From Gammaproteobacteria bacterium (GTDB lineage: Bacteria > Pseudomonadota > Gammaproteobacteria > Steroidobacterales > Steroidobacteraceae), in the NCBI GenBank assembly GCA_004297335.1, contig SCUD01000069.1:39611-103610 (forward strand): a DNA stretch of 64,000 nucleotides, written 5' to 3'. Every line of letters begins with the position of its first letter. Positions within the stretch are counted from its first letter, which is position 1. The position numbers and the translations under genes were made by a program. This document shows positions 4,866 through 28,778 of this stretch, in pieces. The notes below the pieces were generated by a model. The model was not told the DNA's origin and searched no databases. It saw nothing but the letters and a program-made list of their open reading frames with translations.

Positions 4866-4985
4866 GCTGCTGCCCTGCTCCTGTGACCAGCGTTATCAGA
4901 ACATCTTCCGGCCACAAAACAAAGCCGGCTTGACAACGCCAGCGCAGTCCGCATGCTGTCGCGGACCGCAATCCGGGAGGCGTTC

Positions 4986-6311
4986 ATGACTGACAGCCAG
5001 GATCCGCGCGCGACACTGGCGGCTGCACCGATGAGCCGGTTCCAGATCATCGCCGTGGCCATCACCATCGGCCTCAACGCGCTGGACGGTTTCGACGTGC
5101 TGGCGATCAGCTTCGCCGCTCCCGGCATCGCCGCCGAATGGGGCATCGACCGCGCCGCGCTCGGCGTCGTGCTGGCAATGGAGTTGCTGGGGATGACCGC
5201 CGGGTCGCTGCTGTTTGGCGGACTCGCCGACCGCATCGGGCGGCGCCCGACGATCCTCGGCTGCCTCGTGCTGATGACGACCGGCATGCTGCTATGCGTG
5301 ACCGCAGGCGCCGTGATGGAACTCCTGGCCTGGCGCTTCCTGACCGGGCTCGGCATCGGCGGCATGCTGGCCGCGATCAACGCGATGGCGGCCGAATACT
5401 CGAACGCGCGCAACCGCGACATGGCCGTGAGCCTGATGGCCGCGGGTTACCCGATCGGTGCGGTGGTCGGTGGCTCGCTGGTGGCCATCCTGCTGCGACA
5501 CTACGACTGGCGCTCCATCTTCCTGCTGGGCGGCCTCATCACGGCGCTGTTCATTCCGCTGGTGCTCTGGCGGGTCCCGGAATCGATCGCATTTCTCTGT
5601 GACCGGCGGCCCGCCGGCGTGCTCGAACGCATCAATTCGATCCTGCGGAAGATGGGCCAGCCGACCGTGGCCGCGCTGCCTCCCTTGACTGCGGCGGAAC
5701 AGAACCGCAGCCTGGCCGACATCCTCCGGCCCGGGTTGCTGCCGGTCACGATCCTGGTGACCGCAGCGTATTTCCTGCACATCACGACCTTCTACTTCAT
5801 CCTCAAGTGGGCCCCGAAGATCGTCGTGGACATGGGCTTCGCCGCGGCCTCAGCCGCGACCGTGCTGGTCTGGGCCAACGTGGGCGGCGCCACGGGCAGC
5901 CTGGTATTGAGCGTGATGGCGCGCCGTTTTCCGGTCCTGTGGCTGACGCTGGGCGTGCTCGTCATCTCCACGTTCCTGGTTACGCTGTTCGGCTTCACCG
6001 GCGGCAGCATCGGTCACCTGGCCCTGGTCGCGGCGATCGCCGGCTTCTTCACCAATTCGGGTGTCGTCGGCCTCTACGCGATCATTGCCCGGTCGTTCCC
6101 GACGCATGTACGCGCGACGGCCACCGGCTTCGTGATCGGGGTCGGGCGCGGCGGTGCGGCACTGTCACCGGTGATCGCGGGCCTGTTGTTCCAGGCTGGA
6201 ATCGCCACGGGCTTCGTGGCCCCGTGCATGGCGGCGGGCTCGCTGCTCGCGGCCACTGCCCTGCTGCTGTTGCACCGCAGGGCACAGGCCACGCGCCAGG
6301 CACTATCCTAG
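4986..6311 (+). CDS. MFS transporter, aromatic acid:H+ symporter (AAHS)-like
   Basis: Twelve-TM-type hydrophobic profile. The N-terminus (FQIIAVAITIGLNALDGFDVLAISFAAPGIAAEWGI) and the GGLADRIGRR loop are typical of PcaK/BenK-type carriers. A GGGAGG RBS lies 6 nt before the ATG at 4986. Confidence 0.75.
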   Translation: MTDSQDPRATLAAAPMSRFQIIAVAITIGLNALDGFDVLAISFAAPGIAAEWGIDRAALGVVLAMELLGMTAGSLLFGGLADRIGRRPTILGCLVLMTTGMLLCVTAGAVMELLAWRFLTGLGIGGMLAAINAMAAEYSNARNRDMAVSLMAAGYPIGAVVGGSLVAILLRHYDWRSIFLLGGLITALFIPLVLWRVPESIAFLCDRRPAGVLERINSILRKMGQPTVAALPPLTAAEQNRSLADILRPGLLPVTILVTAAYFLHITTFYFILKWAPKIVVDMGFAAASAATVLVWANVGGATGSLVLSVMARRFPVLWLTLGVLVISTFLVTLFGFTGGSIGHLALVAAIAGFFTNSGVVGLYAIIARSFPTHVRATATGFVIGVGRGGAALSPVIAGLLFQAGIATGFVAPCMAAGSLLAATALLLLHRRAQATRQALS

Positions 6312-7645
6312 GCCCGGCCGTACTCCCGGCCCGTATCGAACATTGCGTGCACGTTGGCCGGCACGGCGTCGTCGATGACGGCGCCCGTCGAGAGGATGTA
6401 GCCGCCATCCCGGCCGACGGTGTCGATCAGCCGCTTCACGTGGTCACTGACCTGCGCTGGTGTTCCGGCCGCCAGCAGTGACAGGGGCAGGTTGCCGCCG
6501 AAACAGGCCCAGCCGTGGAAACGCCGCCGCACCTCGGCGAGGTCGGTCTGGTCGAACATCCACAGGGTCGTTCCCGCCGGAATGTCCGGATCCGCGATGA
6601 CATCCAGGCGCCGGTTGCAGGCCCCCTCGACGAACAGGTAGGGCACAACCCCTTCGGCAACCAGGCCGAGGATGACGGCCTTGAGCGTCGGCCAGTAGAA
6701 GCGGCGGAATGTCTTGTCGGACATGAAACTGTCAGCGCCCTTGTGTAGCGGGATGAACACGACCGGCCGGCCGCTGCGGTTGGCGGCGCGCACGCCCATC
6801 TCGATCGCGAGCGGCACCAGTCGCTCCAGTGCCGCCAGCAGCTCGGTCGGCCGCCGGAACAGGTCGAGCGTGACCGCGTGCGTGCCGCGCAGCGTGTCAC
6901 CGATCGTGTCAAAGGGCGCCTTGGTCATGCCGCCGACCACTGGCGCGATCCCCAGTTCGGCGATCGTCGCCGCATCGATGGCGCGGGCCGCCGTGAACCA
7001 CTCCAGTGCCTGCTGCCCGGCGCGCTGCAGTCGCTGCAGGGATTCCTGCAACTCCGGCAGGCCGAAGGGCACGAAGGCTCCGCCGACCATCGGAATCTCC
7101 AGGATGTCGGTCAGCGCTCCCAGCTTCTGCCAGGGTTCGAGCACGCCGAGCACCCGGGGCAGGTAGCTGCGCAGGAAGAAGTTCGACGGGTCGTCGATCA
7201 GCTTCGGGTACTCGTCGGCGCGCATGTATTCGGACTCGACGCACTGGAACGAGGAGTCCTCGGGAATTCCGTGGCCGGCCCAGCGATAGAGCCGGTAATC
7301 CAGCGTTTCCAGCAGCGGCCCCGAGCCGAAGGCAGCCGCGCCGGTCAGCGAATCCGGCAGGAAATCCCGGTGATACCCCCGCAGGGCCTCACCGAGGGCC
7401 GCATAGTCGTACATGGCCTGCTGCACACTGATGCCGGCCTGGCGGGCCGGGAATGCGCCGACGTGCGGGCACACCGGGATGCGCGCCGGAACCCGCAGCT
7501 GGATCGCGTCACGGATGATCCGGACGCGCTCCTCGTAGGCAGCGGCAGCCGCGGGTGCAGCGAAGGAAATCCCGGGCGCGGACAGCCAGTTCGCCAGGCG
7601 CTGTTCCAGCTTGCCGGCCGCCGTATCGACCGTGCTCACGTTCAT
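6308..7645 (-). CDS. uroporphyrinogen-decarboxylase (URO-D) family methyltransferase, candidate substrate:corrinoid methyltransferase (MT-I)
   Basis: 445 aa. The C-terminal block [30 protein letters not shown] is typical of MtaA/URO-D-like methyltransferases. It sits in a corrinoid/THF gene cluster. Confidence 0.65.
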
Positions 7646-8502
7646 GACACCCTTCCTGCCCGCCGTTCAGCGGCCGCAATGGTATTTTCCAGCAACATCG
7701 TGATCGTCATCGGACCGACCCCACCGGGAACTGGCGTGATCAGCGCCGCGACCGCGCGACAGGACTCGAAGTCCACGTCCCCGCAGAGCTTGCCATCCGG
7801 ACCACGGTTGATACCGACATCGATGACGACGGCCCCGGGCTTGATCATGTCCCCGGTAATCATTCGCGGCCGCCCGGCCGCCACGACGAGAATGTCCGCG
7901 CGGCGCGTATGCAAGGCGAGATCGCGGGTCCGCGAATGACAGACCGTGACGGTCGCATTGCGCTCGATGAGCAGCAGCGCCATCGGCTTGCCGACGATAT
8001 TCGAGCGCCCGACGATCACGGCTTCCTGGCCGGCCGGATTCACGCCGGCCTCCTCCAGCATCCGGATGACCCCCAGCGGCGTGCAGGGAATGAAGCGTGC
8101 CCGGCCCTGCACCAGGGCGCCGACGTTCTCGGGATGGAAGCCATCGACGTCCTTGTCGGGCGCAATGGCGTCGAGGATCGCCGTCTCATCGATGTGCGGC
8201 GGCAGCGGCAGCTGCACGAGGATGCCGTGGATCCGCTCGTCGGCATTCAACGCACGGACTTTCGCCAGCAGCTCCGCGGGCGCCACGTCGGCAGGCAGCG
8301 TGATCCTCTCCGAGAGCATGCCTGCGGCCTCGCAGGCATTGACCTTGTTGCGAACATAGACCTGCGAGGCCGGATCCTCGCCGACCAGCACGACGGCGAG
8401 GCCGGGGCGATGCCCGGCCGCCGCCAGCGCCGCGACGCGGCCGGCAAAGCCCTCGCGCAGCTTCCGGGCGAGCGCGTTACCGTCGATTGCAGTGGCTGTC
8501 AT
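7642..8502 (-). CDS. folD: bifunctional 5,10-methylene-THF dehydrogenase / 5,10-methenyl-THF cyclohydrolase
   Basis: Full-length FolD-like sequence ([54 protein letters not shown]). Confidence 0.9.
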
Positions 8503-8515
8503 CGTTACCTTTCTC

Positions 8516-9691
8516 TCAATCCATGGCCCAGGTGCGCAGGGGCCGTCCCAGGGCGCTCCGGTCGGTGAACGGCGAGGCCGGGAGGGCCAGCGCGTCGAAC
8601 GGCGCCTGGGGCGCCAGCGTGGCCGGCAGGCCGAAGTGCCGGCGCGGTGCCGAGGTTGCCGCCGTCAGCACCCGTCCCAGCGACACTCCCGCCTCCAGCC
8701 ACCGGTCGATCTCCTCGCCGACCGCGGTGCCGTGCGCCACGCCCATGCTGCCGGCATCGGTGCCCAGCAGCAAGGGCACTCCCATTCCATCGGCCAGCCG
8801 CAGATGCTCGGCATGTTCATCGAGGATCCGCCGCAGGTGCCCGATCGTCGCCGCGGACCAGCCCGCGGCCTCGGGCTGCGCCCACTGGAAGTGGACCGGG
8901 CAGAAGGTCGGCGTCCAGGCAATCTGGTGGTCGCGCATCAGACCCAGCGTCTCGCGGTTCATGAAGAAGCCGTGCTCGATCGAGCCGACTCCGGCGGCCG
9001 CGGCGATCGCCAGCCCCGCTGCACCACTGCAATGCGCCAGTGTGCCGCGGCCATGCTCGCGAGCCGTCGCCACGACCAGTTGTGCCGCCGCAAGATCGAA
9101 CTGCGGCTGGTCGGTGACGGCCCCGGAATCGAAGTCGATGATGCCGGTCAGCACCAGTTTGATCTCGTCGCAGTCCGCCGCGAGCGCGGCGACCGTCCCG
9201 CGGATCGATGCATCGTCCTCGACATCGCGGGCGATGAAGGCCCCGTAGCGCTTCGGGCGTTTTACCCCGACCCCGGCCGAGCGCACCCGCGCGAGTTCAC
9301 GCGAGCCACGTGCCTCGGCGCGGATCCGGTGGTTGATGCCGTGGCGGTCTCCAGCGTCGCGGACCAGCGTGACGCCGCAGGCCAGGGACCGCCGGGCGCT
9401 CGCGCGCGCGGTCTGCGTCAGTTCCTCGACCGGCTTCTTCAGGTGCGCCGAGCGCAGCGCGTTGTCAGTGACATGGCCCTCGAGGAACAGGTGTACGTGT
9501 GCGTCCACGAGTCCCGGCATCAGGAACGGCACCCGGGTGACCGGCACGGAACTACCGGCCAGGTCCGCGGCCTGATCGCCGGCAGCCAGGCTCGCCAGGC
9601 GGCCGTGTTCCACGACCAACGTGGTCGGCCCTGCGCCATGCCGGCGCTCGCCGTCAAACCACTCGGCCGCGACGATGACTTCGCGGCTCAT
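8516..9691 (-). CDS. amidohydrolase family metal-dependent hydrolase
   Basis: Metal-binding HxH near the N-terminus ([10 protein letters not shown]), later H/D ligand contexts (LAHCSG, IEHGFF, LGTDAG), 391 aa. Substrate unknown. Confidence 0.7.
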
Positions 9692-10578
9692 GCCCGGTAG
9701 AACTTGCGCACGGCACGCAGCGCGTTGCTGCCGGTCTGCTCGAGGAAGTTGCGATAGGCCTGCAGCACGAAGTTATCGTCCGGCAGCGGCGCATAACCCC
9801 GCCAGGGCGTGCCCAGCACCGTATCGAAGCCGAACGGCACGGTCAGGGTCAGGAAGGCGTTCTCCAGCTGGTGCTTCAGGTCCGAGCCGTCCGCCGCCTT
9901 CGCCGGCAGCTGCTGGCCGATGTTCGACAGGCCGCCCATCATGTGCAGCCCGCGCAACTCGGGGTCGCTGCCGATCAAGCGGACCGCCTCGATGGTCGCG
10001 CGATTGAGGCCCTCCGTATCTGCGATGATCGCCGCCACCGAGAGATCGACGAATACATGGTCGAGCGGCATGCGATAGCCGTCACGCAGCCGCAGAGCGG
10101 CGCGCCGGGCGGTACCGGCAATGTCATCGGCCGTCTTGTTGTTCCTGGCCACACCGTCCACGACGCTTTCGGAGGCCATGACCATCACGCGAAAACGATG
10201 CTCCCCGTAGAGCTTCATCGGGTCCCAGCGGTGCTCGGTGATCGAATTGAGGATCGCCAGTTCGCCACCGGCGCGCTGCTGGTCATAAGTGGCGAGGCAC
10301 AGCGCGGACAACTCCGTGGTCGGCACGTCGAAGGACAGCGGCACCGCGACGACGGCCTGGATCGCGCGGATCACGTCCACCAGGAACGGCTGGTCGACCA
10401 TGGCCCGCGATCCGATGTTGACGTTGAGACAGAAGGCGCCGGCCTCGACCTGCCTGACCGCCAGCGCCTGGATTCCCGGCAAGTCTTTCTGGTCGAACAG
10501 GGCTTGGGTGCTGCGGAAGCCAGGGTTGATCCGCTCGCCGATGATCCGGATATCGAAATTACCTGATGTTTGCGCCAT
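9688..10578 (-). CDS. pterin-binding (DHPS-like) methyltetrahydrofolate:corrinoid methyltransferase (MT-II / MeTr-like)
   Basis: The N-terminus IIGERINPG...ALAVRQVEAGAFCLNVNIG matches the pterin-binding TIM-barrel family (AcsE/MetH Pterin_bind). ATGA-type overlap with the downstream amidohydrolase. Confidence 0.75.
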   Translation of the reverse strand: MAQTSGNFDIRIIGERINPGFRSTQALFDQKDLPGIQALAVRQVEAGAFCLNVNIGSRAMVDQPFLVDVIRAIQAVVAVPLSFDVPTTELSALCLATYDQQRAGGELAILNSITEHRWDPMKLYGEHRFRVMVMASESVVDGVARNNKTADDIAGTARRAALRLRDGYRMPLDHVFVDLSVAAIIADTEGLNRATIEAVRLIGSDPELRGLHMMGGLSNIGQQLPAKAADGSDLKHQLENAFLTLTVPFGFDTVLGTPWRGYAPLPDDNFVLQAYRNFLEQTGSNALRAVRKFYRA

Positions 10579-10596
10579 AAATACCTGACAATTAAT

Positions 10597-12411
10597 CTAA
10601 TTAAACCCGATATTGTGGAGGAAAACCTTCTGGAAATCCGCCCGCGTACTGAGCTCGACCAGGCGGCAGGATCGCGCGAGCTCGCGGGCATGGGCCCGAT
10701 CGCGACGCGAGACCAGCAGCCGCCGCACACCGAGTCCCGCGGCATTGCCCACCTGCACGAAGCGCTCGCGGGGCAGCGCCGGAAACAGTCCGGTCGCGAT
10801 GCCGCTCGCCACGTCGATATAGGCACCGAAGGAGCCGGCGATCACGAAGCGTTCAATCGCATCCACCGCGATCCCGGCTTCATCGAGCAGCAGCGCTGTG
10901 GCCGTACGGATCGCCGCCTTGGCGAGCTGCACGGCCCGCACGTCCAGCTGCGTGAAGTGCACCTCCGGCGCCAGCTGCACGGCCCGCTGCCCTGCCACCG
11001 TGACGATATCGGGATGCTGCTTGGCGATCCGCCCGCGCCCATCGATGAATCCACCTTCGCGCAGCACGGCCAGCGCGTCCAGGACCCCGGAACCGCACAG
11101 GCCCACCGGTTGGTGGTGGCCGATCGTCCGGATCCGGATGCGCCCACCATCGAGGCTCACGCGTTCGATGGCGCCCTCGGCCGCGCGCATCCCGCAGGAG
11201 ATGTGCCCGCCTTCGAGCGCCGGACCAGAGGGTGCGGAGGTCGAGAAGAGCCGGTCCCGGACCACGAGGCTGATCTCGGTGTTCGTGCCGATGTCCATCA
11301 CGATCGCCGCCTGGCGGGGGCGCCACTCCGGCTCGGTCGCGAGCAGTGCTGCGACGTGGTCACCGCCGACGAACCCGCCGATGTTCGGCGCGAGTTCTAC
11401 CCGCGCGCCAGGCGCGGTCGCGAGACCGAGCTCGCGCGCCCGGATGCGGATCCCGTCGCAGGCGGTGGCCACGAATGGCGCGCGCCCGAGCTGGCGGACC
11501 GGCAGCCCCAGCAGCAGGTGATGCATCGCGGTGTTGCCACAGATCGCCAGCTCGACGATGTCCGCCGCCGTCTGGCCGACGCTGGCGCACAGGTCGTGGG
11601 CCAGCGCGTTCAGCACTTCGATCGCCGCTGTCCGCAGTGCGGCAGCGCCCTCCCCGCCGTGCAGCGCGTGGTTGATCCGCGTAATGACATCGGCTCCCCA
11701 GGCCACCTGCGGGTTTTCCACGCCCAGCGTCGCCACGCGCTCGCCCCGGTCGAGGTCCACGAGAAAGGCGGCGACGTTGGTCGTGCCGAAATCCACGGCG
11801 AGCCCGAGCGTGCGCCGGCCACAAGGGCCGCAGGCAATGAGTTCTCCATCCTGGGTCCAGGCGCGCAGGCGCCACTCCCGGTCGTTGCCGGACTCGCGCA
11901 GCTGCGCCGGCAGGCGCCTGGCGGCATCGAGGTCCACGGCGAGATCCGGCGTCCCGAGGGCGCGCAGCACGCGATCCACATCCGACCGGCTGTCCTGCAG
12001 GCTGGCGGCGGGAACTGTCACGTCCTGCGCTACGACCGCCGCATCGAGGGCGAGCACCTCGCCTGCCACGGCCGCGGCCTCGGCCCGCACCACCGGAGCG
12101 AGCGACCGCGGCGCCACTGCGATCGTGCAATCACCGCGGGCACTGAGCTGGCAGGAATGCAACCAGCGGCGCTTGCCGGTGTTGCGGCCCCGGCGTGCCA
12201 GCGGAGCCCCGGTCTCAACCACCGTGCCGTCGGTCACCTGCACCAGGCAGCTGCCGCAGGTTCCGCGGCCACCGCAGGCACCGACGATACGCACGCCGTG
12301 GCGGCGGGCGCTCTCGAACAGCGTCTCGTCCTCGCGGGCCGTGATCTCGCGCTCCAGCTGCGGGAAACGCAGGGTGTGCGTCTTGCCTGGGGCGGCCGCG
12401 CGATCCTCCAT
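10597..12411 (-). CDS. RACo-type corrinoid activating enzyme (plant-type 2Fe-2S ferredoxin domain fused to ASKHA ATPase)
   Basis: N-terminal 2Fe-2S motif (GACGGRGTCGSCLV) followed by a long ASKHA-fold region (LAVDFGTTNVAAF, VMDIGTNTEISL). The ATG at 12411 lies 5 nt after the upstream stop. The ATG at 12522 would overlap the upstream gene by more than 100 nt. Confidence 0.8.
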   Translation of the reverse strand: MEDRAAAPGKTHTLRFPQLEREITAREDETLFESARRHGVRIVGACGGRGTCGSCLVQVTDGTVVETGAPLARRGRNTGKRRWLHSCQLSARGDCTIAVAPRSLAPVVRAEAAAVAGEVLALDAAVVAQDVTVPAASLQDSRSDVDRVLRALGTPDLAVDLDAARRLPAQLRESGNDREWRLRAWTQDGELIACGPCGRRTLGLAVDFGTTNVAAFLVDLDRGERVATLGVENPQVAWGADVITRINHALHGGEGAAALRTAAIEVLNALAHDLCASVGQTAADIVELAICGNTAMHHLLLGLPVRQLGRAPFVATACDGIRIRARELGLATAPGARVELAPNIGGFVGGDHVAALLATEPEWRPRQAAIVMDIGTNTEISLVVRDRLFSTSAPSGPALEGGHISCGMRAAEGAIERVSLDGGRIRIRTIGHHQPVGLCGSGVLDALAVLREGGFIDGRGRIAKQHPDIVTVAGQRAVQLAPEVHFTQLDVRAVQLAKAAIRTATALLLDEAGIAVDAIERFVIAGSFGAYIDVASGIATGLFPALPRERFVQVGNAAGLGVRRLLVSRRDRAHARELARSCRLVELSTRADFQKVFLHNIGFN

Positions 12412-12415
12412 CGCC

Positions 12416-13099
12416 TCAGGCCCGCAGGTCGGAGCCGGCGCCCGCGGCCCGCGTGCGCATCCGGCAACGCGGCGCCGATGGGCATTCGTCGCAGCGCGAC
12501 CAGTCGGCCGGCGGCAGGTCATGGCCGACTCCGCAAACCACCGTTCCGGACTTGATCGGCGTCAGCAGATGGCCGCCGTGCAGGCCAACGCCGATCCGCT
12601 CCGCCTGGGCGAGCCGCAGCACTGCCGGCTGCGCTGAAATGTCGAGACCTGGATCCCCGGCCCGCAGCTCACCCGCCATCGACAGGCCGCGCCGTTGGAC
12701 CTCCATGAGCATCCGGTCCTGGAGGCGCCTCCCCAAAGCGATCACCATGTCATTGGCTACTTCGTCGAGCGCTACGGCAAGCGCGGCCCGCTTGTCCGCA
12801 AACAGCTCACGGATCCGGTCCTCGAACTCCGGACCGAGCGTGAAAGTGCCACAGGCGAGACCGGTCAGTTCGCCAGATCCGGGCAGCAGGCGATCCGCCA
12901 GCAGCGTCTCGCCACCGGCCCGCAACGGGGTTCCCGCGGGCTCATCCAGCGGCACGATCCGGTAGCAATAGGCCGGCCGGGCGAGATCCTCTGCGGCGGC
13001 CAGCGCCTCGGCGCGCAGCCGCACTCGGGCTGGCGAGAGGCCGGCCAGCGACCGCTGCGCCGCCTCGCGGTGCAGCTGTTTGCCATTGATCCACGGCAT
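12416..13099 (-). CDS. methionine-synthase activation-domain-like protein (Met_synt_B12 family)
   Basis: The central and C-terminal pattern DEVANDMV...RAGDPGLDISAQPAVLRLAQAERIGVGLHGGHLLTPIKSGTVVCGVG resembles the MetH reactivation domain. A Cys-rich tail follows (CDECPSAPRC). Confidence 0.55.
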   Translation of the reverse strand: MPWINGKQLHREAAQRSLAGLSPARVRLRAEALAAAEDLARPAYCYRIVPLDEPAGTPLRAGGETLLADRLLPGSGELTGLACGTFTLGPEFEDRIRELFADKRAALAVALDEVANDMVIALGRRLQDRMLMEVQRRGLSMAGELRAGDPGLDISAQPAVLRLAQAERIGVGLHGGHLLTPIKSGTVVCGVGHDLPPADWSRCDECPSAPRCRMRTRAAGAGSDLRA

Positions 13100-13129
13100 C
13101 AGGTCACCGTCGGCGCCAGCGCGCTGGGT

Positions 13130-13792
13130 TCAGGCCGCAGCCTGGGTCCACTTCTTGCAGATGTTGACGGCCTCGACCGCGTTGATGCCGAAGGCATCCG
13201 CACCGGTGTAGTTGCGGACCGTTTCGTCGATCTGGCCACCGCCGATCATCACCTTGACCTGTTGGCGCACGCCGGCCTGCTCGAGGGCCGCAATGGTCTC
13301 CTTCATCGAATCAAAGGCCAGCGTCAGGAACCCCGACAGACCGACCACGTCCGGCTTGAAGGCATGGACCTCGTCGATGAAGGTCTGCGCCGGCACATCG
13401 ATGCCGACGTCCTTGACCTCGAAGCCGTTGATGTCGAGCATGAAGCTGACGATGTTCTTGCCGATGTCGTGCAGGTCACCATGGACGGTGCCGATCAGCA
13501 CGCGCCCCAGCTTGTTCGATGGGCCAGCCTCGTGATCCTTGATCAGTGGCTTGGCGATCCGCCCGATTGCGTCCAGCATCTCGCCGGCCAGCACGAGCTC
13601 CGGCAGGAAATACTCGCCCTCCTCGAACTTCTTGCCGACGATGTCCATCGACATGCGGCACAGTTCCAGCACCCGGATCGGATCCTTTCCATCCTCGAGC
13701 AACATCCGCCTGGCCAGGTCCATGGCCTGGTCCTCATTCATGTCGGCCAGCCAGTCCACCAGCTGCTGCTCCTCGGCGTTCAGCTCGCTCAT
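13130..13792 (-). CDS. cobalamin-binding corrinoid protein
   Basis: B12-binding DxHxxG motif (GDLHDIGKNIV), followed by SxL and a GG-containing Rossmann region (VGLSGFLT, VMIGGG). The ATG at 13792 has a GAGGAG RBS 8 nt upstream. The ATG at 13819 has none. Confidence 0.85.
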   Translation of the reverse strand: MSELNAEEQQLVDWLADMNEDQAMDLARRMLLEDGKDPIRVLELCRMSMDIVGKKFEEGEYFLPELVLAGEMLDAIGRIAKPLIKDHEAGPSNKLGRVLIGTVHGDLHDIGKNIVSFMLDINGFEVKDVGIDVPAQTFIDEVHAFKPDVVGLSGFLTLAFDSMKETIAALEQAGVRQQVKVMIGGGQIDETVRNYTGADAFGINAVEAVNICKKWTQAAA

Positions 13793-13825
13793 CAGCGCGT
13801 CTCCTCGTTGCGATTGCATTCTGAT

Positions 13826-15256
13826 TCAGGACGGTCGGACCCGCATCGCGAGACCGGACTCCACAATGACTTCCGCCAGCACGTCCTCGTTGCGGTGTCC
13901 CATCAGGTGAACACCGGCCACGCCCTCGATCCCCGCCAGGGCTTGCACCGTCTCGATGCAGGCCCGCATGGCCTCGGCCTTCTGGTCCGCCGCGGCCTCA
14001 ATCCGGCGCAGCAGTTCCGCGGGAACGTATACGCCCGGGACGTTCTGGGCCATCCAGCGCAGCGCCCGTGCCGAGGCGAGTGTACCAGTCCCAGCCAGGA
14101 TGAAGGCCCGCTGGTGCAGCCCCCGGCGCCGCACTTCGGCCATGAAGCGCTCGAACATCGGCACGTCGAAGCAGAACTGGGTCTGGATGAAGCGCGCACC
14201 GGCGGCGATCTTCTGCTCGAGATTGGCGATGCGGTCGTCGCGCGGCGGCACGAAGGGATTGACGGTCGCCCCGAGAAAGAACTCCGGTGCGGCCAGCAAC
14301 CGCCGCCCCGAGGCAAATTCACCGCGCTCGCACATGCCACGCGCGATCCCGAGCAGCGTGACCGCGTCGAGATCGAACACCGGCCGGGCCTCCGGGTGAT
14401 CGCCGCGGGTCACGTCATCACCGGTCAGGCACAGGACATTGCGTACGCCGAGGGCCGCGGCGCCGAGCAGGTCACCCTGGATCGCAATGCGGTTGCGGTC
14501 CCGGCAGACCGTCTGGTAGACCGGCACGTAGCCGTTCGCCGCCAACAGTGCTGCCGCGGCGACGCTGGACATATGGCAGTTGCCGCCCGCACCGTCGGTG
14601 ATGTTGATCGCGTCGACCAGGCCCTTGAACCTTGCAGCCCGCGCCAGCAGATCCGCCGGATCGGCGGAATCCGGCGGCGCGACTTCCACGGTCACGACGC
14701 TGCGACCGGAACGGCACGCCGCCTCGAAGGATTCCACGGCCCGCTCCGGGCGACTCGTGCCGACCGGCACCGCGGTAACGACCGGCTCAGGTTCACCGTG
14801 GATGACCGTGATCCAGGTGGAACGGCCGCGCCGGCGAGCATCGACCGCCGGCAGTACCGGCGCCGCTCCTGCCTCGCCGCCAGCATGGATGCGCCGCCGC
14901 CCTTCGAGCGCCTCGACCCAGACACAGCGCATCCCCGGATCGACTTCGCAGTTCCCGTCGGGACGCACGCCACCGCAAGGGCCGTTGCGCATTTGCTTCG
15001 GGCAGTTCATCGGGCAGGCCATGCCGGTCTGTGACAGGACGCACTGCCCGCATTCCTGGCAGTCGAATAAGAAGCGCTTGAGTGTGCGCTCGATCGGGTA
15101 CAGCAGCGCTTCCCCGCGCCGGGGGCCGAGCCGGCGCAAGAGCGGCGCCAGCCGCGGCGCATGGGCTGCGAACCAGCGATAAGCCCTCTGCAATCCACGG
15201 GCGTGACGTACTGACCAGAGGCGGACCGGATACATTGCGGGCTCAGTCCACTCCAT
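13826..15256 (-). CDS. metF: methylenetetrahydrofolate reductase, fused MetV-like Cys-rich domain plus MetF domain
   Basis: The N-terminal Cys-rich domain (CQECGQCVLSQTGMACPMNCPKQMRNGPCGG) is fused to an MTHFR barrel (INITDGAGGNCHMSS, VLCLTGDD). Confidence 0.8.
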   Translation of the reverse strand: MEWTEPAMYPVRLWSVRHARGLQRAYRWFAAHAPRLAPLLRRLGPRRGEALLYPIERTLKRFLFDCQECGQCVLSQTGMACPMNCPKQMRNGPCGGVRPDGNCEVDPGMRCVWVEALEGRRRIHAGGEAGAAPVLPAVDARRRGRSTWITVIHGEPEPVVTAVPVGTSRPERAVESFEAACRSGRSVVTVEVAPPDSADPADLLARAARFKGLVDAINITDGAGGNCHMSSVAAAALLAANGYVPVYQTVCRDRNRIAIQGDLLGAAALGVRNVLCLTGDDVTRGDHPEARPVFDLDAVTLLGIARGMCERGEFASGRRLLAAPEFFLGATVNPFVPPRDDRIANLEQKIAAGARFIQTQFCFDVPMFERFMAEVRRRGLHQRAFILAGTGTLASARALRWMAQNVPGVYVPAELLRRIEAAADQKAEAMRACIETVQALAGIEGVAGVHLMGHRNEDVLAEVIVESGLAMRVRPS

Positions 15257-15273
15257 GCACTCGGACAGACGCA

Positions 15274-15345
15274 GATAGATAAGTTATAAAAAACAAAGCC
15301 GTATACACTATATATCAGTAATCACATCAAGCAACATCCCATTCT
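15274..15345. promoter_or_regulatory. AT-rich island in the divergent intergenic region between metF and the cytochrome b561 gene; candidate promoter/UP/architectural-protein region
   Basis: The stretch agatagataagttataaaaaacaaagccgtatacactatatatcagtaatcacatcaagcaac stands out against the GC-rich background. It lies 18-90 nt upstream of the metF start. No convincing -35/-10 pair could be assigned. Confidence 0.35.
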
Positions 15346-15516
15346 GCTCCCGCTGTATCATCGGGCGATAGCATTGTACCGCACATGTTCTGGCCAGGTT
15401 CAGTACGATCATGGACGCTACCGTACACGACTCGTTTCACAGGAGTGACCGGATTCGGTAACGTGACACATTGACCCGCCCGTAGACCCGTGTGGCCCTG
15501 GTAGAGGAACCCGATC

Positions 15517-16065
15517 ATGCAACCGACCGCCTACACCCGGACGGCGATAGCCCTGCACTGGCTTATTGCCGCCCTGATCTTCACGACCTTCCCGCTCGGC
15601 GTGTACATGCACGAGCTGCCGTTGTCACCGACCCGCGTCGAGTTGTATTCGTATCACAAGTGGATCGGGGTCACGATCCTCCTGCTGGCCGTGATCCGCG
15701 TCGCCTGGCGCGCGAGCCATCCGGCACCGCCGCCGGTTGCGGGCACACCGGCCTGGCAGAGGATCACCGCGGCCGCTACCCACCACCTGCTGTACCTGCT
15801 GGTGATCATCATTCCGGTCTCCGGGTGGCTGATGAGCTCGGCCAAGGGCGTGCCGACGGTCTGGCTCGGTCTCGTGCCATTGCCGGACCTCGTCGGGAAG
15901 AACGAGGACCTTGGCGAGCTGCTGGAGGAAGTCCATGAGACCCTCAACTTCCTGCTGCTGCTCCTCGTGGTCGTGCACCTCGTGGGGGCGCTGAAGCACC
16001 GGTTCATCGATCGCGACGAAGTAATGGCCCGGATGCTGCCGTTCCTGGGCTCGCGCAAGCTGTAG
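15517..16065 (+). CDS. cytochrome b561 family protein
   Basis: Four-TM profile with conserved His positions ([34 protein letters not shown]). GAGGAA RBS upstream. Confidence 0.85.
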
Positions 16066-16625
16066 TGAACATGCGCGCCTGGCTGACGAGTGCTGTCCTG
16101 GCGTTACCGGTCCTGGCCCAGGTCGCCTCGGCGCCGCTCGCGCTGGACGCTGCAGGCAGCCGGATTTCGGTCAGGGCCAGCCAGATGGGCGTGCCGATCG
16201 AGGGCGAGTTTCGCCGCATCGAGGCCGAGCTCGACTTCGACCCGGCCAGGCCCGCGGCCGGAAGCGCCCGGGTCCGGATCGAGGTCGGCAGCTTCGACCT
16301 GGGCGACGAGGAATTCAACCGCGAACTGCGGCGTCCGGAGTGGTTCGACGCCGGGCAGCACCCGGTCGCGACCTTCGCGTCGACCGGGATCACTCCTGCC
16401 GGTCCCGGACGCCTGGAAGTGACGGGCCAGCTGACGATCAAGGGCCGCACGGTGGCCGTGACCGTGCCGGTACAGCAGGCCAGCGACGGCAATCAGCAGG
16501 TTCTCGATGGCTCGCTGCCAATCCGCCGCCTGCAGTTCGGCATCGGCAGCGGCGCCTGGGCCGATACCTCGGTCGTTGCCGACGAAGTGGAGATCCGCTT
16601 TCGCCTCGTGGCAGCGGGTTTCTGA
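16065..16625 (+). CDS. YceI family periplasmic protein
   Basis: Signal peptide, then YceI-like beta-barrel sequence ([33 protein letters not shown]). The start overlaps the upstream stop. Confidence 0.8.
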
Positions 16626-16651
16626 TTCTCGCCCCACATCAGCCCCGGAGA

Positions 16652-17224
16652 ATGATCAAGATGAACACGAGAGGATTCGCCGCCACCCTGCTGCTCACCC
16701 CGGCGCTCGCGCTCGCGCAGACCTACCAGATCGATCCGGCTCACACTTACCCGAGTTTCGAGGCCAGTCACATGGGCATCTCGGTCTGGCGCGGCAAGTT
16801 CACTCGCAGCTCCGGAACCGTGACGCTCGATCGCACGGCGAAGTCCGGCACCGTGGATATCCAGATCGATGCATCCTCGATCAATTTCGGCCACGCGCAG
16901 CTGGAGGAGCACGCCCGCGGGCCGGACTTCTTCAACGTCGAGCGGTTCCCGACTGTCACCTACAAAGGCACGATCGCGAGCTGGAACGGCGACGCTCCAG
17001 CGACCGTCGAAGGTGAGCTGACACTGCTGGGGCAATCCCGCGCGATGACCCTGAGCATCCACTCATTCAAGTGCATCGAGCACCCGATGTTCAAACGGGA
17101 GGTCTGCGGCGCCGACGCATCGACCAGCTTCCGGCGCTCGGATTTCGGCATGAGCTACGGCTTGCCGCGCCATGGCGACGATGTCCGGCTGGCAATCCAG
17201 GTCGAGGCGCTGCTGGCGGAATAA
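16652..17224 (+). CDS. YceI family periplasmic protein
   Basis: Signal peptide [23 protein letters not shown], then [26 protein letters not shown], typical of YceI. A GGAG RBS lies before the ATG at 16652. The longer ORF from 16340 overlaps the previous gene. Confidence 0.85.
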
Positions 17225-17243
17225 GCCGCAGCGACCTCGGGGT

Positions 17244-18617
17244 TCAGCGTTGCGTGCCGGCCTGGTCGGCGCGGTCCGCGGCCAGACTCGCCATTGCCGG
17301 ATGCTGGCCGCCGGCCAGGCCCTCGATGAAGCGCAGGTTGCGATTGACCGTGCCCTGGATGTGCCGGACATCCTCGTCCGCCAGGTGCCTGAACTTGCCG
17401 AGCACCCGCAGGTACTCCGTGATCGCGACCGGGCGCCCGGGGTCCCGACTCAGGCGCAGGCCCTCGCCGGGCGCGAACTCCCACAACAGCACGAAGTTCG
17501 ACTCCACGGCCTTGCGTGCGACTTCCATGTTGTCCTGCGACGGAAACCGCCAGCCGGTCGTGCAGGGCGAGTAGATGTGCAGGTAGGCAAAGCCACGTTT
17601 CGAGGCGTCGATCGCCCGGTCCAGCTTGGCGTAGAGATCTTCCATGAATCCGGTCGAGGCCGTCGCGACGTACTCGCAGTTGTGCATCATCATCAGGACC
17701 GGCAGGTTCTTGGCGTCCTGGGTCTTGCCACGGCCGCGTTCGCCGACCGGGGTCGTCGAGGTCCAGGCGCCGAACGGCGTGCAGCTCGAGCGCTGCATAC
17801 CGGTATTCATGTAGCCCTCGTTGTCGACGCAGATGAAGAGGATCTGCTCACCGCGCTCGGCGGCGCCGGACAGCGACTGGAAACCGACGTCCGCCGCACC
17901 ACCGTCGCCGGCGAGCGCGACCGCGTTCACCTCGCGCCCCAGGCGCCGGTACTGGCGCTTGATGCCGGTCAGCATCGAGGCGGTGTTGGTCAGCAGCGGG
18001 TGAAAGACCGGCACCTTGGTACCGGTCAGGCCGTTGTATCCAACTGCACCCATGCCCGGGATGCAGCCCGGCGGCGTGGCCAGCACGGTGTCCGGACCGA
18101 TGCGGCGCAGCGTGTGTCGCATGACGAGCTCGGTGTTGCAGCCCTGGCATCCCGAGAGCCCCGGGGCAAACAGGTCCTCGAGATCACCAACCTCATTGTA
18201 GATGCGCGCCGTCGTGATATATCGCAACGCACCGGTATCGCAGACCTTTACGCAAGCCGGATCGCCGTCGCAGGTGTCGCACTTGACCACGTGCCTTTCC
18301 GCCGCGTTATAGACGATGCCGCCGTAGGCGCAGCCCACGGTGCACAGCAGGCAGTTGACGCACTTGCTGCCATCCCAGGCGATGACCCCATCGTCGCCGT
18401 GCTTGTCCAGCGCGGCCGCCGGGCAGCTGGCCACGCACTTCGGATCGGCGCACTGGCGGCACAGCGCCAGCGCATACGAGCCGTCGTCCGCGGCGATCTG
18501 GATCCGGGAATTGGCCGGATCCGCGCTGCCGGTCTTGACGCTGGCGCAGCTGCGCATGCAATCGCCGCAGCCATTGCAGAGTTCTGGGCGGAAGGCGATG
18601 GTGTTGTAGGCCGGCAT
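17244..18617 (-). CDS. 2-oxoacid:ferredoxin oxidoreductase beta (TPP-binding) subunit with an N-terminal poly-ferredoxin domain
   Basis: The first ~130 aa carry four CxxCxxC-type clusters (CNGCGDCMRSC, CRQCADPKCVASCP, CVNCLLCTVGC, CDTCDGDPACVKVC). The TPP-binding beta-subunit motifs follow (GCQGC, ALAGDGGAADVGFQ, CVDNEGYMNTG). Confidence 0.8.
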   Translation of the reverse strand: MPAYNTIAFRPELCNGCGDCMRSCASVKTGSADPANSRIQIAADDGSYALALCRQCADPKCVASCPAAALDKHGDDGVIAWDGSKCVNCLLCTVGCAYGGIVYNAAERHVVKCDTCDGDPACVKVCDTGALRYITTARIYNEVGDLEDLFAPGLSGCQGCNTELVMRHTLRRIGPDTVLATPPGCIPGMGAVGYNGLTGTKVPVFHPLLTNTASMLTGIKRQYRRLGREVNAVALAGDGGAADVGFQSLSGAAERGEQILFICVDNEGYMNTGMQRSSCTPFGAWTSTTPVGERGRGKTQDAKNLPVLMMMHNCEYVATASTGFMEDLYAKLDRAIDASKRGFAYLHIYSPCTTGWRFPSQDNMEVARKAVESNFVLLWEFAPGEGLRLSRDPGRPVAITEYLRVLGKFRHLADEDVRHIQGTVNRNLRFIEGLAGGQHPAMASLAADRADQAGTQR

Positions 18618-18633
18618 GCAGTGCGCCCCCGTT

Positions 18634-19887
18634 TCAGCGCCAGCTGCGCGACATGATGCGGCGCGCGACCGTCTGCGGGTCGGCCAGGAAGGCTGCGCGC
18701 AGCGGTCCCAGGTCGATGCGCCGCAGGATGAGTTCCCACATGATGCCCGGATCGAAGGGCGCGTTGATGCCGAAGATGCCGGTCAACTGGTCCTGTTGCA
18801 TCACGATCTTCAGGTAGCGCGCGCGATCGGCTTCGCGCAGCACCGTCTCGCCGATATCCTGGCGACCGACCGACACCGCCTGCTGGCCGAAGAACGTGTA
18901 GGTGTTGAGCGGTACTCCGCCGGGGTAGGGTCGCAGCGCAGGGTCGCCAGCCATTGCCTGCCCGGCGATGCGGCCCTGTTCGACGGCGTCAGGCAGGATG
19001 CCGTTGATGATCCGCGCCCCGGCATCCGTGCCGTAGAAATCCCGGGCCTGCGCGACGTCGCCGGCCGCCCAGACATTGCCGACACTGGTCTGCATGCGCT
19101 CGTCGACGAGGATCCCGCGATCCGTCGCGATGCCGGAATCGGCGATGCATTCCATCGCGGGCGCGACGCCGGTCGCGACCAGCAGCAGCCCGGCCGTGAG
19201 TTCCGAGCCATCGTCGAGCTGCAGCCGGATGCCGGCGCCATCGGCAGCGACTCCGGCCGCGCGGCGGCCCAGCAGCAGGCGCACGCCGCGGTCCGAGAAC
19301 GCGGACTCGATGATCGCGGCAGCATCCGCATCGAAGTAGCCGGCCAGCACCCGGGGCTGCAATTCCACGAGCGTGACCTGTACGCCCGCCTTCGCGAGGT
19401 TCTCGGCGGCATGCATGCCGATCAGCCCGGCGCCGAGCACCACGGCCTGTTTGACGGATGGCAGCGCGGCGTGCAGGCCGATCGCGTCATCGAGCCGCCG
19501 CAACACGTGGAACTTCACCCCCCGCAGGCCGGGAATCGGCGGCAGCTGTGGCGCCGCGCCGGTCGCCAGCAGCAGCCGCTCGTAGCCGATCAGGGAACCG
19601 TCGTCCAGCCGGAGCTGATTCGCCGTCGCCTCCACGGCGGTGACGGTGCGACCACGGAGCAGTTGGGCCTTCTGCTCCGCAAACCAGGCCTCGTCCTTCA
19701 GCGCTACACGCTCCGGCGCTGAGCGCCCGGACACGACATAGGGAAGTACCGTCGGCGAGTACGGGAGTGCATCGTCGCGCGTGATCATTGCGAGGCTGCC
19801 CTCGGCATCCTGCATGCGAATGGCCCGCAGCGCCTCGAGCCCGGCGTGGCTTGCCCCGACGATCACATAGCGGTTCGGCACCGGCAT
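18634..19887 (-). CDS. FAD-dependent pyridine-nucleotide-disulfide oxidoreductase family protein (ferredoxin/NAD(P) reductase-like)
   Basis: Two dinucleotide-binding motifs (VIVGASHAG and VVLGAGLIGMHAAE) and the distal FAD motif (WAAGDVA). It is inserted between the OFOR alpha and beta genes. Confidence 0.8.
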   Translation of the reverse strand: MPVPNRYVIVGASHAGLEALRAIRMQDAEGSLAMITRDDALPYSPTVLPYVVSGRSAPERVALKDEAWFAEQKAQLLRGRTVTAVEATANQLRLDDGSLIGYERLLLATGAAPQLPPIPGLRGVKFHVLRRLDDAIGLHAALPSVKQAVVLGAGLIGMHAAENLAKAGVQVTLVELQPRVLAGYFDADAAAIIESAFSDRGVRLLLGRRAAGVAADGAGIRLQLDDGSELTAGLLLVATGVAPAMECIADSGIATDRGILVDERMQTSVGNVWAAGDVAQARDFYGTDAGARIINGILPDAVEQGRIAGQAMAGDPALRPYPGGVPLNTYTFFGQQAVSVGRQDIGETVLREADRARYLKIVMQQDQLTGIFGINAPFDPGIMWELILRRIDLGPLRAAFLADPQTVARRIMSRSWR

Positions 19888-19888
19888 T

Positions 19889-21115: not shown

Positions 21116-21405
21116 GCGCCCTCCTCGATCATCCGGATCGCATGCTGCGGGCATTCGCGGGCGCAGATGCCACAGCCCTTGCAGGTGGCGAGGTTGAAAT
21201 CGAACCAGGCGGGCTTCTCGACCACGCACTGCACCGGGCAGTACAGCCAGCAGACCGCGCACTTGACGCAGCGCTCGCGGTCGATCACCGGCCTCATGCT
21301 CCGCCAGTCCCCTGGCAGCATGGGCGTCAGGCGCGTCGCGATCGGACAGAGATCGTCCGGGATCGTGGAGGCGTCGAACAGCGGCCGGGACTGACGCGTG
21401 GTCAT
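21112..21405 (-). CDS. 2-oxoacid:ferredoxin oxidoreductase delta subunit (2x[4Fe-4S] ferredoxin)
   Basis: 97 aa with CVKCAVCWLYCP and CKGCGICARECP. The ATG at 21405 overlaps the gamma stop (ATGA). Confidence 0.75.
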   Translation of the reverse strand: MTTRQSRPLFDASTIPDDLCPIATRLTPMLPGDWRSMRPVIDRERCVKCAVCWLYCPVQCVVEKPAWFDFNLATCKGCGICARECPQHAIRMIEEGA

Positions 21406-24793: not shown

Positions 24794-24795
24794 TG

Positions 24796-28714: not shown

Positions 28715-28778
28715 CCTCTGCCCCTTCCTTCCATTGCCATTCGTTTCCTGTCTACCGAGGCTACACCTGCGCCTGAGC

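Follow-up and report, generated by a model that had tools for sequence, protein, structure and literature searches.

What would a set of corrinoid-dependent methyl-transfer genes do among genes for the anaerobic degradation of aromatic compounds in a gammaproteobacterium? The question is posed by positions 6308-15256 of a 64-kb stretch of DNA (contig SCUD01000069.1 of the Steroidobacteraceae assembly GCA_004297335.1), which was analysed over its whole length and is called the window below. To our knowledge, anaerobic O-demethylation of lignin aromatics is understood at the level of genes only in acetogens, Desulfitobacterium and a few archaea; these organisms use the methyl group and leave the ring. 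We read the block as a single operon for corrinoid-mediated methyl transfer and methyl oxidation, of the anaerobic O-demethylase type, with a methoxylated aromatic acid as the most likely substrate, and estimate the probability of this reading at about 0.6.

The gene map was obtained by filtering open reading frames (ORFs) by the G+C content of their third codon positions (GC3). The G+C content is 65-71% across the whole window (68% overall), and GC3 of the eight genes of the block equals 0.81-0.87, as in the real genes of the window. All eight are encoded on the minus strand, and transcription proceeds from 15256 to 6308. Eight co-directional genes had been placed here by an earlier note on this DNA; all of them were found at the same coordinates, with agreeing domains and GC3. 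In the order of transcription, and with MT-I and MT-II standing for methyltransferases I and II, they are as follows.

13826-15256, minus strand: fused MetV-MetF (MetVF), first gene of the operon; PF12225 at 83.7 bits and PF02219 at 113.4 bits
13130-13819, minus strand: corrinoid (B12) carrier protein; PF02607 (B12-binding_2) and PF02310 (B12-binding), motif DLHDIG
12416-13099, minus strand: TM0269-like protein of 227 aa (ORF224 in Thauera); profile match to PDB 1J6R
10597-12411 (longest ORF to 12522), minus strand: RACo-type activase; Fer2, RACo_linker, Raco_middle and RACo_C_ter domains
9688-10578, minus strand: MT-II; PRK07535 at 84.7 bits and Pterin_bind at 23.6 bits
8516-9691, minus strand: amidohydrolase; Amidohydro_1 at 65 bits
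7642-8502, minus strand: FolD (methylene-THF dehydrogenase/methenyl-THF cyclohydrolase, THF being tetrahydrofolate); PF02882 at 241.7 bits, PF00763 at 143.6 bits and NF010786 at 466.7 bits
6308-7645, minus strand: MT-I of 445 aa, last gene of the operon; URO-D domain at 62.8 bits

The real order, from MetVF to MT-I, differs from that of the gene list in the earlier note, which had also described the genes as mostly overlapping: just two junctions overlap, by 4 nt each, and the other genes are 4-30 nt apart. Counted upward from the MT-I end, the distances are −4 nt (MT-I/FolD), 13 nt, −4 nt (amidohydrolase/MT-II) and 18 nt, then 4 nt upstream of RACo, 30 nt between the genes of the TM0269-like and corrinoid proteins, and 6 nt between the corrinoid protein gene and MetVF. 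The distance at RACo is that for a start at Met38 (coordinate 12411), which yields a protein of 604 aa, the length of the 94%-identical relative encoded at the related locus L001. Since this length matches L001 and the 107-nt overlap with the upstream gene vanishes, 12411 is most likely the true start.

Among characterised proteins, the window MT-I is best matched by MtvB, the vanillate MT-I of Moorella thermoacetica (blastp, 216 bits, 32% identity over 408 aa, E 2e-69). MtoB1 from Archaeoglobus fulgidus scores 129 bits (27% identity), CdmB 110 bits (23%), CmuA 42 bits and VdmB 35 bits, and blastp gave no significant match with OdmB or with UroD from Bacillus subtilis. The reference MT-I sequences for this comparison were taken from Supplementary Data 3 of the CdmB paper (PMC13222342). 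On the neighbor-joining tree the window family falls within the clade of MtvB, MtoB and CdmB, which also includes several paralogues from Acetobacterium dehalogenans and has 100% bootstrap support; CmuA, MecE/MecC, VdmB/OdmB and UroD (the outgroup) fall outside this clade. The earlier note had suggested an ether-cleaving MT-I, to be doubted if the protein clustered with true UroD or with MtaA/MtbA; in the BLAST comparison and the phylogeny it clusters with neither. A true UroD is ruled out by the lack of a significant blastp match, by the outgroup position on the tree and by the partial match to the PDB structure of UroD (3CYV, E 1.8e-4, C-terminal half only). Membership in the MtaA/MtbA/CmuA family is ruled out as well: the TIGR01463 model (MtaA/CmuA) gives 19.7 bits with a cut-off of 235.4, the thiol-type zinc motif H-x-C is absent from the protein, which has H301-K-G instead, and MtaA (4AY7) is matched at E<=1 neither by the single sequence nor by the profile.

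The window MT-I and MtvB have a near-identical FTKAPFDTLGDTLRG signature, and inspection of the alignment shows the stretch (F/M)TKAPFDT(L/I)GDTLRG to be almost the same in the window family and MtvB; both also have two residues inserted behind a conserved P-L-H. The His of P-L-H (His301 in the window) is kept in MtvB, in all MtoB proteins, in the MT-Is of Thauera type described below and in three of the four A. dehalogenans paralogues of the same clade. CdmB has Trp at this position, and so do, by reading, the 16 CdmB homologues from Supplementary Data 2 of the CdmB paper (PMC13222342). We suspect that this His may protonate the ether oxygen.

Among solved structures, CdmB, the chloromethane MT-I of A. 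dehalogenans, is nearest in sequence (9RUI; E 4e-26 for the single sequence, E 1.4e-44 over the full length for the family profile). An AlphaFold (AF2) model of the window MT-I, built from a 91-sequence alignment, is a UroD-like barrel with a predicted local distance difference test (pLDDT) value of 92 and a predicted template modelling score (pTM) of 0.92; a 12-sequence alignment gave an unusable model (pLDDT 47). In Foldseek searches against PDB only UroD structures and MtaA matched the model (template modelling score about 0.55, 13-17% identity), with no CdmB entry among the matches in the PDB library to April 2026. The window MT-I and UroD have a common fold at 13-16% identity, but the former is longer by about 90 residues, and the CdmB crystal structure, a UroD-like barrel with extensions, stands in the same relation to UroD (PMC13222342). 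These matches confirm a UroD-like fold and do not discriminate between subfamilies.

The partner proteins were compared with the known components of such systems. The corrinoid protein is encoded by a separate gene and combines a helical cap with a B12-binding domain, in which the DxHxxG motif is present as DLHDIG at residues 115-120. The activase, of the type that joins a 2Fe-2S part to an ASKHA part, matches the AcsV model at 356 bits and has the ferredoxin-type Cys83/89/92/124. MT-II is more divergent. Its Pterin_bind score lies under the Pfam cut-off of 25.5 bits, and the PRK07535 match is to an NCBIfam model; in PDB it matches the methyltransferase MeTr (2YCI, E 9.5e-9) and the MT-II of the Desulfitobacterium hafniense O-demethylase (4O0Q, E 5.8e-6). 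The segments IGERIN, SFD, ILNS, FVD and GLSN align with the pterin-binding residues of MeTr, with the Asp/Asn/Asp/Asn positions kept. These matches point to a divergent pterin-binding TIM barrel, predicted to act as a methyl-corrinoid:tetrahydrofolate (THF) methyltransferase. The MetV part of MetVF has eight Cys in residues 66-111, and the NF010786 score of FolD is over the NCBIfam cut-off.

The product of 12416-13099 had been called a MetH-activation-domain protein. No Pfam or NCBIfam model matched it, and the single sequence gave E 0.012 with PDB 1J6R, the stand-alone MetH reactivation protein TM0269 of Thermotoga maritima; a profile of nine homologues gave E 1e-14, which confirms the assignment made in the earlier note. 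The gene is kept at the same position in all proteobacterial operons examined, and the protein probably assists the reactivation or loading of the corrinoid. The family also has an invariant C-terminal CxxCx5C, located outside the stretch aligned with TM0269, which suggests a metal or Fe-S site.

The window proteins thus include all four structural components of a four-component O-demethylase (MT-I, corrinoid protein, MT-II and activating enzyme), and by this structural measure the system would be an O-demethylase-type corrinoid system. The quartet, accompanied by its own genes for methyl-THF oxidation, had been proposed in the earlier note, and the intact domains and cofactor motifs bear it out.

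In the proposed route the MtvB-type MT-I would move the methyl group of a methyl ether to the Co(I) corrinoid protein; the substrate would most likely be a methoxylated aromatic acid (such as vanillate, anisate or a related compound) that enters through the aromatic-acid/H+ symporter encoded next to the operon. MT-II would hand the methyl group to THF, and the RACo activase with ATP would re-reduce the Co(II) corrinoid, probably aided by the TM0269-like protein. MetVF and FolD would oxidise methyl-THF to methylene-THF and then to 10-formyl-THF, from which the amidohydrolase may free formate and THF. The demethylated hydroxy-aromatic acid would feed the neighbouring genes of CoA-dependent dehydroxylation and ring reduction; its passage to an aryl-CoA, followed by dehydroxylation and ring reduction, is plausible. 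We infer the direction of flux in the operon and also the methoxy-aromatic class of the substrate, the latter from the context.

How unusual is this operon? A search with the amidohydrolase returned 897 clusters at E<=1e-20, and the best 120 of these have 65-94% identity; the named ones among the best 120 of 897 come mostly from Rhodocyclales and Burkholderiales, with several from Candidatus (Ca.) Thiodiazotropha and a few assigned only to Gammaproteobacteria or Proteobacteria. Every examined context of the amidohydrolase relatives contained the backbone MetVF, corrinoid protein, MT-I, TM0269-like protein, RACo, MT-II, amidohydrolase and, in some cases, FolD. Such an operon was found in Thauera aromatica (GCA_023093595.1), JGI contig L090, Ca. 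Thiodiazotropha and a metagenome-assembled genome (MAG) of Sulfuritalea; T. aromatica K172 (CP028339.1) has two copies, near 2.13 Mb and 0.20 Mb, and T. chlorobenzoica carries the amidohydrolase. A metagenome scan added 80 further loci, in which the order from MetVF to the amidohydrolase is kept given enough upstream sequence. The recurrence of the gene set on dozens of independent contigs is far beyond chance, and the backbone is widespread in Beta- and Gammaproteobacteria. By this synteny check, which the earlier note had called for, the arrangement is not rare outside Firmicutes and nothing exceptional in a proteobacterium.

The second K172 copy of the operon (locus L094, CP028339.1 199,061-220,275; about 13558-21215 of the locus) precedes genes of a LysR regulator and a luciferase-like oxidoreductase and what looks like a set for coenzyme F420 biosynthesis, comprising PF01996 F420_ligase, CofD, CofC, a radical-SAM protein with CofH_C and an FrhB-like gene, which is unexpected beside a folate one-carbon (C1) module in a betaproteobacterium.

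The backbone copies differ from the window in their MT-I. The MT-I of Thauera type, encoded at the third position, shows 64-75% identity among Thauera, Sulfuritalea, Thiodiazotropha and L090, and 31-35% identity to the window MT-I (33-35% for Thauera). The window has no MT-I at the third position: the 30-nt gap between the genes of the corrinoid and TM0269-like proteins holds no remnant, and an MT-I of the other type follows FolD. The identities of the other window proteins to the K172 copies are 66-72% for MetVF, 74-75% for the corrinoid protein, 79% for MT-II, 70% for the amidohydrolase, 60% for FolD, 60% for RACo and 53% for the TM0269-like protein. Between the two K172 copies the TM0269-like protein, MT-II and amidohydrolase are 100% identical, RACo 98% and the corrinoid protein 92%, with MetVF at 75% and MT-I at 61.5%. 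Since divergent MT-Is are carried by a near-identical backbone in K172, MT-I may be regarded as a variable, presumably substrate-determining cassette. Neither the 80 metagenome loci nor the six genome loci examined from proteobacteria contain an MT-I of window type; with this backbone only the window and L001 have it. The unusual part of the window is therefore the MT-I module and not the system: a conserved proteobacterial backbone appears to have received a different MT-I cassette, from a family typical of Anaerolineae and Acidobacteriota. Closest to the window after L001 are the loci L088/L095 (JGI Ga0194120_10001061, about 6278-12065), with an amidohydrolase of 79% identity and the same flanking genes of 2-oxoglutarate:ferredoxin-oxidoreductase (KGOR), cytochrome b561 and YceI; their operon consists of MetVF, corrinoid protein, TM0269-like protein, MT-II, amidohydrolase and FolD, without MT-I and without RACo.

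The gene environment of the sister operons bears on the substrate. Transporter genes of the aromatic-acid/H+ symporter family (AAHS) of the major facilitator superfamily (MFS) flank the operons of the window, L001 and Thauera, with 416 bits at T. aromatica. In five independent contigs the Thauera-type operon is abutted by genes of a VanA_C-type Rieske oxygenase and a VanB-like ferredoxin reductase (L090, 11111-14378; L106, 288-3147; L096, L112 and L129), and the VanA/VanB-type genes on these contigs are 74-86% identical to those of L090; in L106 a GntR/FCD regulator lies between these genes and the operon. This adjacency points to the pairing of an aerobic with an anaerobic demethylase. Other genes repeatedly seen near the sister operons encode CoA ligases, periplasmic binding proteins of aromatic type and regulators of the MarR and LysR families. 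In anoxic groundwater with 13C-veratrate, the label reached Sulfuritalea as well as other taxa (PMC10602745). Two further points in favour of a methoxylated aromatic acid are that MtvB acts on vanillate and that the window has genes for reductive dehydroxylation and for ring reduction.

The window-type MT-I itself has thousands of relatives of about 446 aa with 50-64% identity. In the scan of species-representative genomes no match exceeded 64% identity, and the relatives belonged mostly to Anaerolineae and other Chloroflexota and to Acidobacteriota, with some in Syntrophomonadaceae and Halanaerobiales and only a handful in Proteobacteria. Of 81 genome loci with an MT-I homologue, from several phyla, 71 have a corrinoid protein gene nearby, usually directly upstream, and about one third have RACo and MT-II; further genes that recur nearby encode an ACS-type MFS transporter, DUF1638 and a regulator of GntR/UTRA type. 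In Acidobacteriota the MT-I gene is found near a block of corrinoid protein, TM0269-like protein, RACo and divergent MT-II similar to that of the window (45-63% identity). Among the MT-I loci examined, MetVF, FolD and the amidohydrolase stand beside a window-type MT-I only in the window and L001.

Some further features of this family were observed. In seven Acidobacteriota loci (L012, L013, L016, L018, L021, L026 and L045) the MT-I gene lies opposite the block just described, and ten Acidobacteriota loci have a homocysteine S-methyltransferase near MT-I, which looks like a split methionine synthase with an extra methyl donor. In Ca. Acidiferrales (L082-L084) MT-I adjoins genes of a plant-type O-methyltransferase, S-adenosylhomocysteine hydrolase, S-adenosylmethionine (SAM) synthetase and a pyrroloquinoline quinone dehydrogenase. 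Clustering assigned 98 members of the MT-I family to 73 loci (L002-L081), so that several loci have two nearby MT-I copies, comparable to archaeal MtoB1/MtoB2.

The amidohydrolase is the most faithful companion of MT-II. It is encoded behind MT-II in nearly all related loci that reach far enough upstream, with codons that overlap or abut in every case checked, and the pairing holds where FolD is missing (K172 locus a, Sulfuritalea) and in homologues of 46-56% identity. In the distant locus L173 only the trio of MetVF, MT-II and amidohydrolase is present, in an unrelated context that gave no other clue to the function. The metal ligands H65xH67, K178, H220, H240 and D312 are invariant, so the enzyme is catalytically intact. 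In PDB it comes nearest to amidohydrolases of ochratoxin type and to enzymes resembling Xaa-Pro/Arg carboxypeptidase, both of which cleave bonds of N-acyl amino acids. In the cmu cluster of chloromethane users, metF and folD are accompanied by purU; neither purU nor fhs was found in the window operon. Because the operon would make 10-formyl-THF with neither gene, and cmu has purU, our working hypothesis is that the amidohydrolase is a candidate 10-formyl-THF hydrolase that takes the place of PurU. Alternatively, it may trim an amide-conjugated substrate.

Known systems share parts of this design. The MT-Is of MtvABC from M. thermoacetica and of MtoABCD from Methermicoccus shengliensis and A. 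fulgidus belong to the same clade of the UroD superfamily as that of the window, and both systems have a separate DxHxxG corrinoid protein, a methyl-corrinoid:pterin MT-II and an activase of RACo/MtoD type; the mto cluster, like the window, has an MFS transporter gene nearby (PMC8630106). The MT-I identity to Mtv/Mto is only 23-32%, however, and the host is a respiring proteobacterium instead of an acetogen or an archaeon. Mtv and Mto feed the methyl group to the Wood-Ljungdahl pathway or to tetrahydromethanopterin, whereas the window has operon-encoded oxidation by MetVF and FolD; it also adds the TM0269-like protein and the amidohydrolase, and its MT-II belongs to a divergent pterin-binding family. 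The Odm/Vdm systems of A. dehalogenans and those of D. hafniense DCB-2 comprise the same four roles, with substrate-specific MT-I modules on common components, but OdmB and VdmB form a distant branch of the UroD superfamily (at most 35 bits with the window MT-I) and the Odm, Vdm and DCB-2 clusters lack C1-oxidation genes. The operon of T. aromatica K172, Sulfuritalea and Ca. Thiodiazotropha has the orthologous backbone with an adjacent aromatic-acid symporter gene, and differs in that its MT-I gene follows that of the corrinoid protein and not FolD.

Two other THF-dependent systems were compared as well. The cmu cluster of Methylobacterium and Hyphomicrobium (cmuA, cmuB, metF2, folD, purU) is likewise a proteobacterial corrinoid system with its own metF and folD, but CmuA is a fused MT-I/corrinoid protein, whereas in the window MT-I and the corrinoid protein are separate, RACo is present, the operon has no purU, and the context is aromatic. 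In ligM-metF-ligH of Sphingobium sp. SYK-6, vanillate and 3-O-methylgallate are demethylated aerobically with THF (PMC11868366). An aromatic O-demethylase is combined there, as in the window, with a dedicated methylene-THF reductase (MTHFR) working in the oxidative direction and with processing of formyl-THF; LigM, however, is a corrinoid-independent GcvT-like enzyme that uses THF itself as the methyl acceptor, the MTHFR belongs to another type, and LigH is a homologue of formyl-THF synthetase. The mlp gene clusters (PMC10418091) were set aside by the description in their abstract, which speaks of coenzyme-M-methyltransferase homologues in methyl-sulfur/selenide metabolism and does not mention THF.

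Several points weigh against a methoxylated aromatic acid as the substrate of the window operon. Its source is a MAG, known from sequence alone. With only 32% identity to MtvB, the substrate class of the window MT-I is not secure; CdmB, 31% identical to MtoB, is haloalkane-specific and inactive on methoxylated aromatics (PMC13222342). The position of the window family as sister to MtvB on the tree has only moderate support (72% bootstrap), is lost once the Thauera-type sequences join the tree, and is not relied on. The adjacency of VanAB-type genes concerns the Thauera-type MT-I and not the window type, the convergent MFS gene is transcribed apart from the operon, the CoA ligase encoded nearby resembles FadD and not benzoate-CoA ligase, and in an operon without PurU or Fhs the final formyl step depends on the role proposed for the amidohydrolase. 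Finally, conservation of the MT-I family between phyla is unusually high (50-64% identity, with a mean column identity of 74-77%), and its companions in Chloroflexi are galactonate-like MFS transporters of ACS type and GntR/UTRA regulators; both would also fit one common non-aromatic methylated acid. This leads to an alternative that we consider unlikely, in which MT-I acts on a methylated compound other than a methoxy-aromatic one (an O-methylated sugar acid, a small methylated anion, an S- or N-methyl compound), the backbone is a general module for methyl-to-THF oxidation, and its place in an aromatic island is due to chance or some other reason. A single common substrate is suggested by the striking conservation of the window-type MT-I over Chloroflexota, Acidobacteriota, Bacillota and a few Proteobacteria; DUF1638 next to the regulator and transporter genes in Chloroflexi, the homocysteine S-methyltransferase or SAM-cycle genes in Acidobacteriota, and the sister operon in Ca. 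Thiodiazotropha, a marine sulfur-oxidising symbiont, point the same way. Yet the closest characterised enzyme is a vanillate demethylase, the MT-I types for methanol, methylamine and quaternary amines have other folds and are not present in the operon, the thiol-type HxC is replaced by H301-K-G with the low TIGR01463 score given above, and aromatic-acid symporters and VanAB genes recur beside the operon.

A haloalkane dehalogenase of Cdm/Cmu kind, passing the methyl group of chloromethane to the corrinoid for oxidation by MetF and FolD as in the cmu system of Methylobacterium, is improbable. CdmB is the closest solved structure by sequence and belongs to the same clade, and a cluster that adds its own metF and folD to a corrinoid methyltransferase follows the cmu design known from Methylobacterium extorquens CM4. 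The identity to CdmB, however, is below that to MtvB or MtoB, a gas has no need of an MFS importer, and the genomic context is aromatic. The P-L-H His is present in the window, MtvB, MtoB and the Thauera type instead of the Trp of CdmB, although this residue alone does not decide the function. By sequence the window MT-I is placed outside the Cdm haloalkane group (23% identity to CdmB, His301 versus Trp), and a cmu-type chloromethane cluster is rejected, as there is no fused CmuA, CmuA is distant at 42 bits, and the operon has no purU. Least probable of all is an operon running in the synthetic direction, or a housekeeping system resembling a split methionine synthase, in which the methyl group of MetF-made methyl-THF would travel on the corrinoid to an acceptor and the URO-D-like protein would be the transferase that takes it over. 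The TM0269-like, corrinoid and pterin-binding proteins are indeed the pieces of a split MetH, homocysteine S-methyltransferase occurs in related Acidobacteriota loci, and corrinoid O-demethylases are reversible in vitro; but neither the window operon nor any of the proteobacterial copies examined has a homocysteine-binding domain, the operon lies within a catabolic island, its MT-I belongs to a clade that activates methyl donors, and the duplication in K172 with divergent MT-Is fits substrate diversification.

If the operon is indeed an O-demethylase for methoxylated aromatic acids, a corrinoid system wired to methyl-THF oxidation amid benzoyl-CoA genes would explain how the methoxy group and the ring can both be mineralised with nitrate by a single organism. 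Anaerobic demethylation of vanillate by denitrifiers was reported decades ago (Taylor 1983, as cited in PMC10602745), and in the literature searched no genes were found assigned to it. A search of the full-text literature, which largely leaves out subscription journals, brought up no report that Thauera, Aromatoleum, Azoarcus or Sulfuritalea have an O-demethylase of corrinoid type. The impression in the earlier note that denitrifying degraders have no characterised trait of this kind therefore seems correct, common as the gene set is. The combination of a proteobacterial nitrate-respiring host, MetVF and FolD, the TM0269-like protein and the amidohydrolase seems not to have been described, as far as found. 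Since the backbone is present twice in the culturable T. aromatica K172, the hypothesis is directly testable. The surprise to specialists would mainly be that the operon had been overlooked in T. aromatica, the best-studied organism of this kind. Exchange of MT-I cassettes suggests how the substrate range evolves, and the conserved amidohydrolase may be an unrecognised enzyme of the folate cycle. A wider and rather doubtful reading, which we offer tentatively, is that of a self-contained methoxy-respiring module, retuned in facultative anaerobes by MT-I swaps across phyla: denitrifiers including K172 would cleave aryl methyl ethers anaerobically and oxidise the methyl group to formate or CO2, the amidohydrolase would be the 10-formyl-THF hydrolase replacing PurU, and the window would be a captured swap that brought in an MT-I of Acidobacteriota/Chloroflexota type.

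The operon is bordered by two features.

4953-6311, plus strand: MFS transporter, convergent with the MT-I gene; TIGR00895 at 336 bits
15257-15516, no strand assigned: intergenic stretch that separates the operon from the divergent cytochrome b561/YceI genes; by position only, the promoter and regulatory sites would presumably lie here

The MFS gene stands tail to tail with the operon, overlaps the MT-I gene by 4 nt and is a separate transcription unit; L001 has the same layout. It belongs to the aromatic-acid/H+ symporter family by TIGR00895 (cut-off 418.55) and by matches of the PcaK and MhpT models, and is a candidate importer of the methylated substrate, linked to the operon by adjacency only. 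A scan of 15257-15516 for the sigma-70 consensus found nothing, promoter and terminator scans did not rise above the shuffled background, and the Rfam scan of the entire window revealed neither a cobalamin riboswitch nor any other family.

Upstream of the operon lie the cytochrome b561/YceI genes, a KGOR-like set, a thioesterase and a BcrAD/HGD-D pair, and next to them three subunits resembling 4-hydroxybenzoyl-CoA reductase (4-HBCR). The alpha subunit scores 791 bits with an equivalog cut-off of 994.55, and is thus taken for a 4-HBCR paralogue. Further on follow genes of beta-oxidation type, one for a FadD-like CoA ligase and the full BcrCBAD set of a Thauera-type benzoyl-CoA reductase (BCR), and the rest of the window consists of CoA-dependent catabolic genes and transporters. 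Hence the aromatic context described in the earlier note, with an MFS transporter on one side and 4-HBCR-like and BCR genes on the other, stands, except that the MFS gene is convergent and lies outside the operon.

Three sets of genes in this neighbourhood deserve mention. Positions 22695-28912 hold a second, partial BCR-like pair (a BcrA/D-type ATPase and an HGD-D/BcrB-like protein) beside the three 4-HBCR-like genes; this may be a dehydroxylating system for another hydroxy-aryl-CoA, e.g. protocatechuyl-CoA. At 28779-33477 the FadD-like CoA ligase (589 aa, with fatty-acid/acyl-CoA ligases as the best NCBIfam matches) is followed by a fused 3-hydroxyacyl-CoA dehydrogenase/enoyl-CoA hydratase, and these genes would suit beta-oxidation of the side chain of phenylpropanoids (ferulate, coumarate). 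At 51136-54563 a third gene of the HGD-D family adjoins that of a 714-aa protein with three stretches that match the CoA-transferase III model.

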